Virus record (IMG/VR): IMGVR_UViG_3300000574_000109
Span: 1-25,384 of that record
Strand: one strand, 5' to 3'
DNA from: a virus
Taxonomy: Duplodnaviria > Caudoviricetes
Length of the DNA: 25,384 nucleotides
The position numbers and the translations under genes are program-made. The notes under the pieces were generated by a model. That model saw only the letters and a program-made list of their open reading frames with translations. It did not search any database and was not told where the DNA came from. Positions 9,404 to 20,935 of the stretch are shown in pieces; position 1 is the first letter of the stretch; each line of letters opens with the position of its first letter.

Positions 9404-10864
9404 ATGGACATTGAACTGAGAAGCCCCGACGAGATCCGCCCCTACGAGGGCAACCCCCGCCAGAACGCGGCGGCCATCGAGGCCGTGGCGGCGTCGATCA
9501 AGGCCTTCGGCTTCCGTCAGCCCATCGTGGTGGACGCCGAGGGCGTCATCATCTGCGGCCACACCCGCCACAAGGCCGCGCAGAAGCTCGGCCTCGCCAA
9601 GGTCCCGGTCCACGTCGCCCGGGAGTTGACGCCGCTCCAGGTCCGGGCGCTCCGCCTCGCCGACAACAAGACCCACGAGCTCGCGGAATGGGACCTGGAG
9701 CTCCTGCCCAAGGAGTTGCAGGCCCTCCTCGACGAGGCCTTCGACATCGAGAGCATCGGGTTCAGCCCCGAGGACCTGAAGACCCTCACGGACACGGGGG
9801 AGGACCCCAAGGCCAGGAAACTCACGGAGCGCTTCCTCGTGCCACCCTTCTCCGTGCTCGACGCCCGCCAGGGCTACTGGCAAAGCCGCAAGGAGGAATG
9901 GCTCACGCTCGGGATCGAGAGCGAGCTCGGCCGCCACGAAGGCGGCGAGGGCAAGCCCACCTTCTCGGTGAGCAGCCAGCCCATCCACGTCTACAAGCAG
10001 AAGGGCGCCTTCGAGGAGAAGCTCGGCCGCAAGGTCACCTGGGAGGAGTTCTACGTCGCGAACCCCGACGCCTACTGCCAGCCAGGGACGAGCATCTTCG
10101 ACCCCGTGCTCTCTGAGCTGGTCGTCCGGTGGTTCTGCCCGATGGGCGGGACGGTGCTCGACCCCTTCGCCGGCGGGAGCGTGCGCGGCATCGTCGCCAG
10201 CCGCCTCGGCCGCAAGTACGTCGGCGTCGAGCTTCGCCGCGAGCAGATCGAGGCCAACCGGAAGCAGGCCGAGCGCATCTGCACCGGGCCGATGCCCGAA
10301 TGGATCGAGGGCGACAGCCGCGACATCCAGAAGCTCGCCGCCGGCGTCGAGGCCGATCTTGTTTTTTCGTGCCCGCCCTACGCCGACCTCGAACGCTACA
10401 GCGACGACCCGCGCGACCTATCGACGATGGACTATGCGGAATTCCGCCGCAACTACCGCGAGATCGTCGCGGCCTCGACCGCTCTGCTCAAGCCCAACCG
10501 CTTCGCCTGCTTCGTCGTCGGCGACCTCCGCGACAAGGCGGGCTTCTACCGCGACTTCCCCATGCACACCGTCGAGGCCTTCGAGGGGGCGGGGCTCCGC
10601 TTCTACAACGACGCCGTGCTCGTGACGCAGATCGCCTCGCTCCCCGTGCGGGTCGCCAACTACTTCACCAAGAGCCGCAAGCTCGGAAAGGCGCACCAGA
10701 ACGTCCAGGTCTTCTACAAGGGCGCCCTCCAGGCCTTCCAAGACGACTTCCAGCTCGTGAAGCACCACGAGAACGTGATGCTCTTCGCCAAGGGATCGCC
10801 CGAGCAGGCGACCGCCGACCTGGGGGAGGTCGAGATCACCACCATCGCGGAGGACCCGGCGTGA
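9404..10864 (+). CDS. ParB/Srx N-terminal domain fused to a SAM-dependent DNA amino-methyltransferase-like domain
   Basis: PYEGNPR, FGFRQPIVVD, GHTR, LRLADNK (ParB-N); LDPFAGG (motif I); FSCPPY (motif IV variant); AAGGAG RBS. Confidence 0.9.
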   Translation: MDIELRSPDEIRPYEGNPRQNAAAIEAVAASIKAFGFRQPIVVDAEGVIICGHTRHKAAQKLGLAKVPVHVARELTPLQVRALRLADNKTHELAEWDLELLPKELQALLDEAFDIESIGFSPEDLKTLTDTGEDPKARKLTERFLVPPFSVLDARQGYWQSRKEEWLTLGIESELGRHEGGEGKPTFSVSSQPIHVYKQKGAFEEKLGRKVTWEEFYVANPDAYCQPGTSIFDPVLSELVVRWFCPMGGTVLDPFAGGSVRGIVASRLGRKYVGVELRREQIEANRKQAERICTGPMPEWIEGDSRDIQKLAAGVEADLVFSCPPYADLERYSDDPRDLSTMDYAEFRRNYREIVAASTALLKPNRFACFVVGDLRDKAGFYRDFPMHTVEAFEGAGLRFYNDAVLVTQIASLPVRVANYFTKSRKLGKAHQNVQVFYKGALQAFQDDFQLVKHHENVMLFAKGSPEQATADLGEVEITTIAEDPA

Positions 10865-11553
10865 CGCTCCCTGCCCCCGTCCTCGAGGAGGTCGAAGGCT
10901 TCCTGGTCGTGCGCGACGACCTGGTCCCCGGCGGCACGAAGCGCCGCGTCCTGGAGCCCCTCGTCGCGGCTTCGCCGGCGCGGGAGTTCGTCTACGCCTC
11001 CCCCGCCTACGGATACGCCCAGGTCGCCTTGGCGCATGCCTGCGCGGCCGCGGGCAAGCGCGCCACGGTGTTCGTCGCCCAGAGGAAAGCGCTCCATCCG
11101 CGGACCGCCGAGGCCCAGGCCGCCGGGGCGCGTCTCGTCGAGGTCCCGCACGGCTACCTCACCCACGTCCAGGTCAGGGCGCGGGCCTCCGCGCGCGTGA
11201 CCGGGGCCGAGCTCCTGCCGTTCGGGATGGACACCCCGGAGTTCATCGAGGCCCTCGCGGGGATCGCCAAGGCGCTCCCCGTCGAGCCCCGGGAGGTCTG
11301 GACCGTCGCCGGATCAGGCGTCCTCACCCGCGCCCTGCAACAGGCCTGGCCGGAGGCCGTCTTCCACGCTGTGCGGATCGGCCACACCCCCGACGCCGGC
11401 CGCGCGACGCTCTGGCGCGCGCCGGAGAGGTTCGAGCAGGCCGCCAAGACCCGGCCGCCCTTCCCCAGCTCAGACAACTACGACGCCAAGGCCTGGCGGT
11501 TCCTCAGGCAGTGGGGCAGGCCCGGCGCCCTCTTCTGGAACGTGGGAGCCTAG
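10861..11553 (+). CDS. Fold-type II PLP-dependent enzyme (ACC deaminase/D-cysteine desulfhydrase-like)
   Basis: GTG overlapping the upstream stop; VRDDLVPGGTKRR (Schiff-base Lys), VAGSG, NYDAKA, LFWNVG; 230 aa. Confidence 0.82.
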   Translation: MTLPAPVLEEVEGFLVVRDDLVPGGTKRRVLEPLVAASPAREFVYASPAYGYAQVALAHACAAAGKRATVFVAQRKALHPRTAEAQAAGARLVEVPHGYLTHVQVRARASARVTGAELLPFGMDTPEFIEALAGIAKALPVEPREVWTVAGSGVLTRALQQAWPEAVFHAVRIGHTPDAGRATLWRAPERFEQAAKTRPPFPSSDNYDAKAWRFLRQWGRPGALFWNVGA

Positions 11554-11556
11554 ACC

Positions 11557-12063
11557 ATGGAAGGCCAAGACGGAGACCCCGCGGCCCGGACGGCGATAGA
11601 AAAGATCGTCCTCCTCATGGTCAGCGGCATGAGCCAGGCCGACCTGGAAAGCGCCTGTGTCATGAAGCTCGGGCTGGAGCCGGAACGCGTGGCCTCAGCC
11701 GTCGCCGAGGCGCGCCGCAGGCTCACCCGTGCGGCCGACTACAACCGCGACGAGCAGCTCGGGACGGCCATCACCCGCATGAACGATCTCTACGCCCGGG
11801 CCGTCCGCACGGGCGACCTCAAGACCGCGCTCACCGCCCAGCGCGAGATCAACAAGCTCATGGACCTCTACCGCGAGGCCATTGGGGGGGAGGGTCCGGA
11901 GGCCGAGCACGCCGACCCCGAAGGGGCCCAGGCCGAGCTTGCCGCGATCCGCCGGCACCTCCTGCCGCTGGGGTTGGCAGCCGAGAGCTACCCCCTGCGC
12001 GAACACGCCCGAATCGCCGCCGACCTGATCCGTGAACAGGGGAAACCATGCCCCGGCGCGTAA
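11557..12063 (+). CDS. Putative terminase small subunit
   Basis: 168 aa helical protein overlapping the start of the large subunit; call is positional. Confidence 0.6.
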   Translation: MEGQDGDPAARTAIEKIVLLMVSGMSQADLESACVMKLGLEPERVASAVAEARRRLTRAADYNRDEQLGTAITRMNDLYARAVRTGDLKTALTAQREINKLMDLYREAIGGEGPEAEHADPEGAQAELAAIRRHLLPLGLAAESYPLREHARIAADLIREQGKPCPGA

Positions 12064-14126
12064 CCAAGGACGACTACCTCAAGCGCAAGGAGAGCGCCCG
12101 GGCCCGGGCGTCCGAGGAGAGCCGCATCGGCCGCGACATCGGCGACATCCCGCCGGTGCTGGATTCAGGCCGCAAGGCCGCCGCGCGCACCGATTTCAGA
12201 CGCTTCTGCGAGGCCTACTTCCCGCAGCGCTTCACCCTCCCCTGGTCGGCGGACCACCAGCGCGTCATCGCCAAGATCGAGGAGGCCGTGCTGGATGGCG
12301 GCCTCTTCGCCATGGCCATGCCGCGAGGCTCGGGCAAGACCACGCTCTGCGAATGCGCCGTGCTCTGGTCCCTCCTCATCGGGGCCCACCCCTTCGTGTT
12401 CCTCATCGGGAGCTGCGAGGAGCACGCGCTCGCCATGCTCGACAACCTCAAGAGCGAGCTCATGCACAACGAGCTCCTGCTCGCAGACTTCCCCGAGGCG
12501 GTCTACCCCATCCGATGCCTCGAAAACCAGAGCCGCCGCTGCGTCGGGCAGATCCACCACGGCCGCTCCACCTATATCAGCTGGAACGCCGACCAGCTCA
12601 TCCTGCCGAGCATCCCCGGCAGCCGGGCCTCGGCGGCCATCATCCGGGTAGCCGGGCTCACCGGGAACCTGCGCGGCGCGGTCCATACCAGGCCCGACGG
12701 CAGGCGGGTCCGGCCCAGCCTCGTCATCCTCGACGATCCCCAGACGGACCAGTCCGCGCGCTCACCCTCTCAGTGCGCCTACCGCGAGAGCATCCTCGCG
12801 GGGGCGGTCCTGGGCCTGGCCGGCCCGGGAAAGAAGATCAGCGGCATCCTGCCCTGCACGGTGATCCGCCCAGAGGACATGGCCGACAACATCCTCGACC
12901 GCGACAAGCACCCGCAGTGGCAGGGCGAGCGGACCAAGATGGTCTACGCATTCCCCACGAACGAGAAGCTCTGGGAGGAGTATGCCCAGGTCCGGGCCGA
13001 GGAACTCAGAAGCGACCGGGGGATCAGGGCCGCGACCGAGTTCTACCGCCGACACCGCGAGGAGATGGACCTCGGCGCGCGGATCGCCTGGCCCGAGCGC
13101 TTCAACACCGACGAGGCCTCGGCCGTCCAGCACGCCATGAACCTGAAGCTCCAAGACGAGGCCGCCTTCTTCGCCGAGTACCAGAACGAGCCGCTCCCTG
13201 AGGACGTGGGCGACGGCGAGGTCCTGACCCCCGATGACGTGGCGGCGAAGACGAACGGCCTAAAGCGCGCCGAGGTCGCCATCGGCGCGAGCCGCCTGAC
13301 GATGTTCATCGACGTGCAGCAGAAGCTCCTCTTCTACACCGTCGTCGCCTGGGAGGAGGACTTCACCGGTTACGTCATCGACTACGGGAGCTACCCCGAC
13401 CAGCAGCGGGCCTTCTTTACCTTGAGAGACGCCCGTCGGACGCTCGCCATGCAAGCCTCTGGCGCAGGGCTCGAAGGCTCGATCTACGCCGGGCTCGAAG
13501 CGCTCCTCAACGACTACCTCGGCCGCGAGTGGCGGCGCGACGACGGAGCGCGCATGAAGATCGACCGCTGCCTCGTGGACGCCAACTGGGGCTCGTCCAC
13601 GGAGGTGATCTACCAGTTCTGCCGGCAGTCGAAGCACGCGGCGCTGCTCCTTCCCAGCCACGGCCGCTTCGTCGGCGCCTCCTCGATGCCGTTCACGGAG
13701 TACAAGCGCAAGCTCGGCGACCGCGTCGGCCACAACTGGCGCGTCCCCAATGTCGCCGGCAAGCGCGCCATCAGGCACGTCGTCTACGACACCAACTACT
13801 GGAAGTCCTTCCTCTACGCGCGCCTCGCCGTCCCGATGGGCGACAGGGGCTGCCTCTCGCTCTTCGGCGACAAGCCCGACCTGCACCGCCTCATCGCCGA
13901 GCACGTCTGCGCCGAGTACCGCGTGAAGACGGAGGGCCGCGGGCGGGTCGTGGACGAATGGAAGATGCGCCCCGAGCAGTTCGACAACCACTGGCTCGAT
14001 TGCCTGGTCGGCTGCGCCGTCGCTGCCTCGCTCGAAGGCGTGGTCCTGCCCGGCACCGACGCGGCCAGGCCGCCCCGTGCCGCTCGCCTGAAGCTCTCCG
14101 ATCTTCAGAAGGACAGGCGGAGATGA
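12048..14126 (+). CDS. terL: Terminase large subunit (lambda GpA-like nuclease domain)
   Basis: Walker A MPRGSGKTT, Walker B VILDDPQ, EYQNEP, nuclease acidic motifs FIDVQ, LVDANWG, NHWLDC. Confidence 0.92.
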   Translation: MPRRVTKDDYLKRKESARARASEESRIGRDIGDIPPVLDSGRKAAARTDFRRFCEAYFPQRFTLPWSADHQRVIAKIEEAVLDGGLFAMAMPRGSGKTTLCECAVLWSLLIGAHPFVFLIGSCEEHALAMLDNLKSELMHNELLLADFPEAVYPIRCLENQSRRCVGQIHHGRSTYISWNADQLILPSIPGSRASAAIIRVAGLTGNLRGAVHTRPDGRRVRPSLVILDDPQTDQSARSPSQCAYRESILAGAVLGLAGPGKKISGILPCTVIRPEDMADNILDRDKHPQWQGERTKMVYAFPTNEKLWEEYAQVRAEELRSDRGIRAATEFYRRHREEMDLGARIAWPERFNTDEASAVQHAMNLKLQDEAAFFAEYQNEPLPEDVGDGEVLTPDDVAAKTNGLKRAEVAIGASRLTMFIDVQQKLLFYTVVAWEEDFTGYVIDYGSYPDQQRAFFTLRDARRTLAMQASGAGLEGSIYAGLEALLNDYLGREWRRDDGARMKIDRCLVDANWGSSTEVIYQFCRQSKHAALLLPSHGRFVGASSMPFTEYKRKLGDRVGHNWRVPNVAGKRAIRHVVYDTNYWKSFLYARLAVPMGDRGCLSLFGDKPDLHRLIAEHVCAEYRVKTEGRGRVVDEWKMRPEQFDNHWLDCLVGCAVAASLEGVVLPGTDAARPPRAARLKLSDLQKDRRR

Positions 14127-14311
14127 AGGGCCCCCTGTCCGACCCTGCGAAGCCCGCCCCGCGTGACAGGCGGGGGCTCGAATGCCCAGCCTGCGGGTGC
14201 CGGCACTTCCAGGTCATCTACACCCGGGCAGCCTGGGGCGGGCGAATCATGCGGCGGCGCGAGTGCCGCCACTGCGGCAGGCGGATCACGACCTACGAAC
14301 AGGCCCCCTAA
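14123..14311 (+). CDS. Stand-alone NrdR-N/Ogr-like zinc-ribbon protein
   Basis: CPACG...VIYTR...IMRRRECRHCGRRITTYE resembles the NrdR N-terminal ribbon; ATGA overlap with terL; 62 aa; no ATP cone. Confidence 0.85.
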   Translation: MKGPLSDPAKPAPRDRRGLECPACGCRHFQVIYTRAAWGGRIMRRRECRHCGRRITTYEQAP

Positions 14312-19627: not shown

Positions 19628-20935
19628 ATGACCACCTACTACGTCCACAAGTCCGGCAACGATTCCAACAACGGCCTCACCCTGGGCACGGCCAAGAAGA
19701 CCATCGGCGCCGCGGTCTCCCTGCTCGGCAGCGCCGACACCGTGCAGGTGTACCGCGGGGTCTACAAGGAGACTGTTGCGCCCACGACGCTGGTCTGGAC
19801 CCTCAAGGCCATTGGCCGGGTCATCATCGACGGCGAGAACCTCCGGTCGTTCGGGATCCAGGCCAACAACATCAACCAGCCGACGATGTTGCGCGTCATC
19901 GACGGCTTCGAGATCCGAAACTGCGTCTCGGCCGGTATCTATTCCGGGGCCAACAACTCCCTCGGGTCCTGGCCCTCCACCTGGCTCACGATCCGGAACT
20001 GCCACATCCACCACTGCCCCCGCGGCGTCATGGGCCAGCCGGGGACCTGCTCCGGGCACACCGTGCTGGATACGGTCATCCACGACTGCTCGATTGCCGC
20101 CTGTGAGCTCGACAATAACGGCGACAACTCGAACTTCCAGGGCAACCTGGAGCGCGTCACGATCTACGGTTGCGCCAGGGGCGTGTCGAGGTTCAACAGC
20201 CAGGGCGGACAGGTCAACGGCGCCTACGACATCAAGAGCAGCCTCTTCCTCAACAACGCGGTCGCCCTCTACTCCTTCGGCGGCGCCCCGAACACGCCGA
20301 GCTCCAACTACAACAGCTTCTTCGGGAACACCAAGGTCGCCAGCCGCAACGGGACGGACTACGCCACCCTTGCCGACTGGTTCGCCGCAACCGGCAGGGA
20401 TGCCAACTCCCTCAGCTCCGATCCCCTGGTCATCGACCTGGCGGCGGGGCTCGTCGCCCTCCAGTCCGCGTCCCCGCTCCTCGGCGCCGGCTTCAACGGG
20501 GAGGACATTGGCGCCAGAGGGGTGGCGAAGTTCGCCCAGTCCGAGGCGTTCAGCCACACGGACTGGGGGAGCGGGATCATGGTGGATACCCAGGTCGCCG
20601 GGGGGAAGATCGAGCTCGTCCCGCCCGCGACGGTAGGCACCTTCACCTCGACGGTCTACGACCTGGGGACCGGGGTGACCCGGCGGCTCACCGGCTTCGA
20701 CTTGATGGCGGACGAGACGGAGCCCACGGACGTGGTGGACGCCGACATCGATGACGCGGGCCCCAACAGGAAGACCATCGAGGTCCGGATGTCGGCGACC
20801 GTCTTCTCCCAGGCCGCGGGCTTCCCCGCCTGGGTCAAGATCGAGCAGGGGGCCAACGTGGTCCTGCCGAACACCCTGGCCGGGCGCTACATCCAGTACC
20901 GCCTCACCCTCCGCAAGGACGGGGTGGAGGCCTAG
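19628..20935 (+). CDS. Right-handed parallel beta-helix (pectin lyase-like) protein with C-terminal beta-sandwich; possible appendage or depolymerase
   Basis: YYVHKSGNDSNNG...KTIGAA..GVYKE N-cap; Asn/Cys ladders (IRNC, IRNCHIHHC, IHDC); SASPLLGAG; GRYIQYRLTL. Confidence 0.8.
   Translation: MTTYYVHKSGNDSNNGLTLGTAKKTIGAAVSLLGSADTVQVYRGVYKETVAPTTLVWTLKAIGRVIIDGENLRSFGIQANNINQPTMLRVIDGFEIRNCVSAGIYSGANNSLGSWPSTWLTIRNCHIHHCPRGVMGQPGTCSGHTVLDTVIHDCSIAACELDNNGDNSNFQGNLERVTIYGCARGVSRFNSQGGQVNGAYDIKSSLFLNNAVALYSFGGAPNTPSSNYNSFFGNTKVASRNGTDYATLADWFAATGRDANSLSSDPLVIDLAAGLVALQSASPLLGAGFNGEDIGARGVAKFAQSEAFSHTDWGSGIMVDTQVAGGKIELVPPATVGTFTSTVYDLGTGVTRRLTGFDLMADETEPTDVVDADIDDAGPNRKTIEVRMSATVFSQAAGFPAWVKIEQGANVVLPNTLAGRYIQYRLTLRKDGVEA

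Follow-up and report, generated by a model that had tools for sequence, protein, structure and literature searches.

A conserved phage gene pair of SAM-fold transferase and PLP enzyme, predicted to place an aminopropyl group on DNA bases

In a 25,384-nucleotide stretch of a tailed phage (Duplodnaviria; Caudoviricetes; IMG/VR record IMGVR_UViG_3300000574_000109, positions 1 to 25,384; hereafter the window), a gene for an S-adenosylmethionine (SAM)-fold transferase with an N-terminal ParB domain overlaps a gene for a compact pyridoxal phosphate (PLP) enzyme, and the two form a real, conserved module. The reading we prefer, to which we give a probability of roughly 0.6, is that the transferase moves SAM's 3-amino-3-carboxypropyl (ACP) group to a DNA base and that the PLP enzyme then decarboxylates the DNA-bound ACP adduct to a positively charged aminopropyl group, much as gp52 of phage M6 does with its own adduct. 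Members of the transferase family that have no partner would leave the ACP base, while a sister clade linked to AdoMet decarboxylase (AdoMetDC) would take its aminopropyl straight from decarboxylated SAM and so arrive at the same base. One product, aminopropyl, would therefore explain both partners, the PLP enzyme acting after the transfer and AdoMetDC before it. That ACP is transferred, in which order the steps follow, that DNA is the substrate and that the modification protects it are inferences from the comparisons given below. The features concerned are as follows.

9404 to 10864, plus strand: ParB-N plus class I SAM-fold amino-methyltransferase-like open reading frame (ORF), 486 aa, unpermuted; predicted ACP transferase
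9425 to 9661, plus strand: ParB N-terminal domain (ParB_N), aa 8-86; PF02195, E 8e-8
10160 to 10189, plus strand: motif I, DPFAGGSVRG, in which G258 is F+3, V260 is F+5 and R261 is F+6
10280 to 10294, plus strand: loop that hosts PLP insertions in relatives, about aa 293-297 (core profile positions 66-71)
10370 to 10381, plus strand: motif IV, CPPY, family-wide
10861 to 11553, plus strand: ORF of a compact fold-type II PLP enzyme, 230 aa, M6 gp52 homolog; predicted to decarboxylate an amino-acid adduct on DNA
10939 to 10941, plus strand: AAG codon of Lys27, invariant in 72 aligned homologs and equivalent to Lys36 of M6 gp52; proposed site of the internal aldimine

An earlier reading of this DNA, made by a model from the sequence only, had placed these elements correctly throughout (DPFAGG at 10160-10177, CPPY at 10370-10381, the Lys codon at 10939, the GTGA overlap at 10861-10864), and its view of both genes held. 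The ParB-N/methyltransferase fold of the first is borne out by PF02195 and by the N6_N4_Mtase family (PF01555, E 6e-13), with PHROG matches to phrog_498 (E 3e-125) and phrog_12517 (E 5e-106). The second is indeed a compact fold-II PLP enzyme: it falls in phrog_7093 (E 6e-37), which PHROG labels 'threonine dehydratase', it matches Pfam PALP at E 1e-6, under Pfam's cut-off, and its model (predicted local distance difference test score, pLDDT, 97) is of fold-type II. The GTG at 10861, inside the overlap, was chosen as the start of the PLP ORF because it fits all homologs; the G+C content at third codon positions is 0.94. An alternative 474-aa ORF in the same frame (10129-11553) was rejected, as upstream of this GTG it runs over the transferase core.

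Gp52 of phage M6 belongs to the same phrog_7093 (E 2e-159). It aligns with the window's PLP protein end to end at 25% identity, hhalign (probability 96.8%) sets Lys27 on Lys36, and the two share a C-terminal PFP..YDxKAW..FWN segment, the window protein being 48 aa shorter; homology to gp226 of phage ViI is weak. Lee et al. (PMC8989533) showed M6 gp52 and ViI gp226 to be decarboxylases of amino acids that are attached to DNA bases, and by analogy the window enzyme is predicted to act likewise on an amino acid bound to DNA. ViI gp226 was modelled on 1j0a, a homolog of 1-aminocyclopropane-1-carboxylate (ACC) deaminase (PMC8989533), and 1j0a is also the best superposition of our PLP model (TM score 0.82). 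The sequence-only reading had left the choice between decarboxylation and deamination open; decarboxylation is the better supported of the two.

In M6 and ViI a kinase and an amino-acid:DNA transferase make the adduct out of 5-hydroxymethyluracil (5-hmU). The window system differs in having neither of these, nor a radical SAM isomerase, and in having the SAM-fold transferase as its partner. The absence of the kinase and amino-acid:DNA transferase from the window, a fragment that ends within tail genes, had been reported before and is confirmed. Furthermore, tblastn with M6 gp51, gp53, gp54 and gp55 matched none of the 498 fetched loci, and a Pfam search of three complete GenBank phages that carry the pair (Erythrobacter R6L, Microcystis Mae-JY30 and Pseudanabaena Pam4), in which M6 matched as positive control, detected neither the 5-hmU kinase nor the amino-acid:DNA transferase. 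With no 5-hmU pathway genes alongside the PLP gene, the adduct on which its enzyme acts must therefore have another source. It could be supposed that the enzyme serves a 5-hmU pathway encoded elsewhere and stands next to the transferase by accident, since the window is a fragment and the characterised homologs belong to that pathway. With the pathway absent from the three complete phages and the 498 loci, and with PLP domains fused into the transferase itself, such a supposition is hardly credible and, for the relatives, largely refuted.

The evidence for a working partnership comes from linkage and fusion. Scans seeded with the PLP family gave 160 loci, or 113 representatives at 90% identity; 63 of these were too short and were set aside, which left 50 with flanks of 2 kb or more in each direction. 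A CPPY transferase was found in 39 of the 50, a transferase of the GWGxR/SPPY type described below in 10, and neither in one; as one of these loci duplicates that of the window, the PLP family adjoins a SAM-fold PPY transferase in 48/49 non-redundant loci of other phages. The pairing is far beyond chance, and the co-occurrence across phages on which the earlier proposal depended is present. In R6L gp1, ZS04 gp7 and Pam4 gp70 the PLP domain is inserted in one and the same transferase loop, which in the transferase model is flanked by a helix and a strand (insertion in that loop in 7/120 protein homologs; PLP fused in 12/160 PLP-seeded loci). The Pam4 insert falls in phrog_3650 (E 9e-29), the family of ViI gp226, so two PLP lineages, one M6-like and one ViI-like and each with a proven DNA decarboxylase, use that loop.

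A different partner is found in the GenBank relatives P2559S and ZRG1, where an AdoMetDC gene occupies the position of the PLP gene. In Croceibacter phage P2559S the AdoMetDC has been shown to work in vivo (PMC9992855); we assume that the enzyme concerned is the one encoded behind the transferase. Motif I was surveyed in 168 representatives of 254 full transferase cores. The window type, FAG-G-x-x-R (FAG-G-SV-R in the window), occurred in 134/168, 28 of them with PLP, 90 with neither partner, 16 too short to tell and none with AdoMetDC. The sister type, FAG-D-x-x-F (FAG-D-xV-F, with Asp at F+3 and Phe at F+6), occurred in 33/168, 31 with AdoMetDC and none with PLP; the group differs from the rest at ten further columns as well. 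The same division is seen from the side of the partners: all 98 readable motifs at PLP-seeded loci were G..R and all 51 at AdoMetDC-seeded loci D..F, the latter stemming from 8 of 23 representatives (in 13 a nearby transferase was lacking, and in 2 it was cut). R261 is present in 134/135 of the representatives without the Asp and is gone from the AdoMetDC clade. The one remaining representative (L186, 4494-5120) branches within the D..F clade; in it Asp and AdoMetDC are both lost, and motif I is one residue shorter. It is known that aminopropyltransferases select decarboxylated SAM by an acidic residue in the motif I loop. ACP transfer by the class I enzyme TYW2 depends on a basic residue that binds the carboxylate (PMC3386263). 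By alignment, Arg at F+6 goes with SAM as the presumed donor, and Asp at F+3 without the Arg goes with a supply of decarboxylated SAM.

These patterns also bear on the order of the two steps. The PLP enzyme may instead be a non-homologous AdoMet decarboxylase that works on free SAM, which bears a free alpha-amino acid group, after which the transferase would move aminopropyl to DNA. The PLP and AdoMetDC genes share one position and do not co-occur, and a PLP insertion near the SAM-binding half of the transferase could channel the cofactor. However, no alignment column separates PLP-linked from partnerless transferases; G258 and R261 are kept in 28/28 PLP-linked representatives just as in the partnerless ones, whereas the AdoMetDC-linked clade changed both, and the characterised PLP homologs work on DNA-bound adducts. 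We consider decarboxylation of free SAM improbable and favour decarboxylation after the transfer, because the PLP-linked transferases keep G258 and R261 like those without a partner.

The transferase resembles the beta-class N4C/N6A methylases (TTHA0409, CcrM, M.BceJIV, M.MboIIA, N4CMT) in its class I fold and in a homologous motif I and PPY motif IV, and the methylases of ParB-terminase loci (PMC4738411, PMC12704722) in its ParB fusion and its position before the terminase. PMC12704722 lists ParB/N6_N4 fusions, and the main text of that paper has no mention of CPPY, pyridoxal or a decarboxylase. From these known methylases the window family differs in being unpermuted, in the Cys that comes first in motif IV, in having no Ser/Thr carboxylate anchors and in its linkage or fusion to decarboxylases. 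Motif I lies at aa 253 and motif IV at aa 323, which is not the permuted beta-class order (IV before I), and against TTHA0409 its two halves match with their order exchanged. Motif I aligns to beta-class methylases free of gaps. There, hydroxyls at F+3 and F+5 hold the cofactor carboxylate in N4CMT (Phe280, Ser283, Thr285; PMC10406627) and in M.BceJIV (Phe241, Ser244, Thr246; PMC11380664); in the window family F+3 is Gly or Asp, F+5 is Val with few exceptions, and neither anchor is present.

Motif IV of N4C/N6A methylases is given as (D/N/S/H)PP(Y/F/W) (PMC4738411), and the CPPY of the window falls outside this set. Cys being close to Ser, methylation stays compatible with CPPY. The sequence-only reading had singled out CPPY in place of D/N/S-PPY; as a marker of the PLP step the motif was rejected, being common to the family (116/120 homologs; 100% of the PLP-linked, the partnerless and the AdoMetDC-linked groups). 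The transferase could be an ordinary methylase making N4-methylcytosine or N6-methyladenine, with a PLP or AdoMetDC partner put to a different use, for example to drain host SAM from restriction systems or to supply polyamines. Methyltransferases make up all of its close matches in sequence and structure, most family members have no partner, the R6L fusion bears the purely predicted annotation of a CcrM-like methylase (PMC5463345), phage AdoMetDCs have been described as polyamine genes (PMC9992855), and in the SAM-draining version decarboxylated SAM possibly serves as methyl donor. Polyamine supply, on the other hand, agrees poorly with the lack of a spermidine synthase in all five AdoMetDC-linked phage records searched. 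A plain methylase would also leave unexplained why two PLP lineages entered the same loop, why the PLP family is tied to one transferase group, why it is kin to DNA-adduct decarboxylases and why motif I changes together with AdoMetDC. This alternative is unlikely, if the least unlikely of those weighed here.

That DNA is the substrate of the proposed ACP transfer is suggested by the PPY motif, the ParB fusion, the TerL (terminase large subunit) gene downstream and the fusions to DNA polymerase A in the sister family. A ParB domain is present in 116/126 related loci and TerL lies downstream in at least 65/122; a higher terminase count of 114/122, based on single-linkage clusters, was dropped when one cluster representative gave no Pfam match. 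In the window the next genes are the following.

11557 to 12063, plus strand: terminase small subunit candidate ORF, 168 aa, by position only; overlaps the start of terL
12048 to 14126, plus strand: TerL with gpA-type nuclease domain; PF20454, E 3e-22; phrog_38

The pair had been described as lying directly before terS and terL; terL is confirmed, while terS is assigned by position, the 168-aa ORF having no PHROG or NCBIfam match and one weak unrelated match in Pfam. The suggestion that ParB may target the enzyme to DNA being packaged goes back to Aravind and coworkers, and ParB-terminase methylases have been predicted to modify DNA during packaging (PMC4738411, PMC8256090). As for the target base, our guess is cytosine N4 first, adenine N6 second and guanine N2 third; cytosine N4 is preferred because the Cys sits where N4C enzymes have Ser and because the sister family has SPPY.

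It is known that MccD and MccE transfer ACP and then decarboxylate it with PLP, leaving aminopropyl on the phosphoramidate of microcin C. The acceptor of ACP or aminopropyl could similarly be something other than a DNA base (the phosphate backbone, tRNA, a small molecule or a protein), or else the PLP reaction might be an elimination or a deamination. The top structural matches of the transferase are tRNA m2G methyltransferases, and the solved fold-II neighbours of the PLP model are dehydratases, desulfhydrases and ACC deaminase homologs. The intact base-stacking PPY motif, the ParB fusion, the terminase linkage and the polymerase fusion of the sister family argue against another acceptor; against another PLP reaction stands the proven decarboxylase ViI gp226, modelled on the very structure that superposes best here. 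Taken together, these variants seem rather improbable.

The sister family just mentioned was met in the ten PLP loci without CPPY, which carry a homologous transferase with D-x-x-x-GWG-x-R and SPPY motifs (hhalign 98.8%). About 1 kb from the PLP gene, GWGxR transferases are fused to the N-terminus of DNA polymerase A (L288:8744-12145, L292:8544-11984 and L293:8360-9736, the last one cut). No independent switch to Asp and AdoMetDC was found there, with AdoMetDC in 0/80 loci and a PLP match in 18/80; the scan pattern required GWG[GD], therefore altered GWGxR motifs could not appear. Large phages (L420-L499) have up to three GWGxR paralogs, some with PPPY, PPPF or EPPY as motif IV.

Several observations weigh against ACP transfer followed by decarboxylation. 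The transferase model (pLDDT 92.6, class I fold, ligand-free) best matches the methyltransferases aTrm11 (Z 19.7) and TrmN (Z 19.6), while MccD (Z 15.5) lies below these two and level with many other methyltransferases; the best PDB sequence matches are beta-class DNA methylases. As such matches do not separate methyl from ACP transfer, the fold alone is uninformative on which arm of SAM is transferred. TYW2 and MccD are alike in that their class I fold is capable of ACP transfer (TYW2: PMC3386263, PMC12630136), but they act on tRNA or peptide-nucleotide substrates and no special closeness of sequence or structure to the window family was found. The identity to gp52 is low, and the direct BLAST match of the Pam4 insert to gp226 is weak (E 3e-4). 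The link between D..F and AdoMetDC comes from a single clade and so amounts to a single event and a single reversal; the set was fetched with the AdoMetDC-linked ZRG1 protein, and in two D..F representatives no AdoMetDC adjoins the transferase. The parts that R261 and residue F+3 may play in the choice of donor are read from alignment and not from a SAM-bound model, and the Arg of GWGxR meets R261 only in a gap-free alignment, the hhalign offset being two. Other true methylases, too, have neither Ser at F+3 nor Thr at F+5. We found no measured activity or modified base for any member of the family.

The coupling of the two genes is likewise one-sided: the PLP family is nearly always beside a transferase, as had been proposed, but for the transferase the PLP gene is optional. 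Among transferase-seeded representatives of the window type it was found within the flank in 18/108 and not in the other 90, and a whole-genome search of four partnerless genomes, run with a positive control, found no phrog_7093 gene anywhere. Presence of the PLP gene is scattered over the transferase tree (FastTree; 14 changes for 20 rows). With so loose a link, the transferase would make something viable alone, and the PLP step would be an add-on. Inspection of the 60 commonest neighbour clusters, not a family-by-family scan, gave no recurring third partner for partnerless transferases. One PLP locus (L296) has no transferase nearby, and on a giant-virus contig (L014:5938-6729) a PLP gene lies near two glycosyltransferase-like genes, with no CPPY transferase in its flanks. 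In the partnerless HCTV-2 (L021:5141-5782) the gene behind the CPPY transferase encodes a second methyltransferase-fold protein.

On balance, the proposal of the sequence-only reading that an ACP transfer is followed by a PLP step gains support, at the level of sequence comparison, from the gp52 homology, the fusion and linkage, and the replacement of the PLP gene by AdoMetDC with a matching change in motif I. Our literature search, which took in few subscription papers and no supplements, found no ACP or aminopropyl base in phage DNA and no CPPY phage methyltransferase. An aminopropyl base has likely not yet been demonstrated in phage DNA, and the pair is likely a variant of post-replicative phage DNA hypermodification. 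The abstract of Iyer et al. 2013 (NAR 41:7635) reportedly speaks of bases 'derived using modified S-adenosyl methionine derivatives'; the systems meant there probably include those in which a phage methylase at a ParB-terminase locus goes with SAM decarboxylase, and the AdoMetDC arm may have been predicted there earlier. We would put at slightly better than even the chance that the whole CPPY and GWGxR 'methylase' family consists of DNA ACP/aminopropyl transferases with two convergent routes to a cationic base. In IMG/VR we estimate about 2,600 matching stretches for the CPPY family and about 3,700 for its GWGxR sister. If the proposal is true, enzymes of DNA methylase fold naturally transfer the long arm of SAM, many phages carry overlooked bases and thousands of 'DNA methylases' would have to be re-annotated. 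It would be a third route to hypermodified phage DNA, one which needs no altered nucleotide pool and would therefore suit small temperate phages. It would also explain AdoMet decarboxylase genes in phages without spermidine synthase and provide a natural enzyme that places a primary amine handle on DNA from plain SAM.

The genes of the window run in the order serine recombinase, helicase, primase, the transferase and PLP pair, terminase, portal and capsid genes. Between 8900 and 12300 we found no sigma-70 promoter and no plus-strand terminator. At 10694-10798 the C-terminus of the transferase has a duplicated last-strand segment, HQNVQVFYKG followed by HHENVMLFAKG, and similar duplications are present in L012 and ZRG1 (L022). 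A 435-aa predicted beta-helix protein (19628-20935; weak PF13229) is found amid the head-tail genes, and directly after terL, at 14123-14311, lies a small Cys-rich ORF (CPACGC ... RECRHC).

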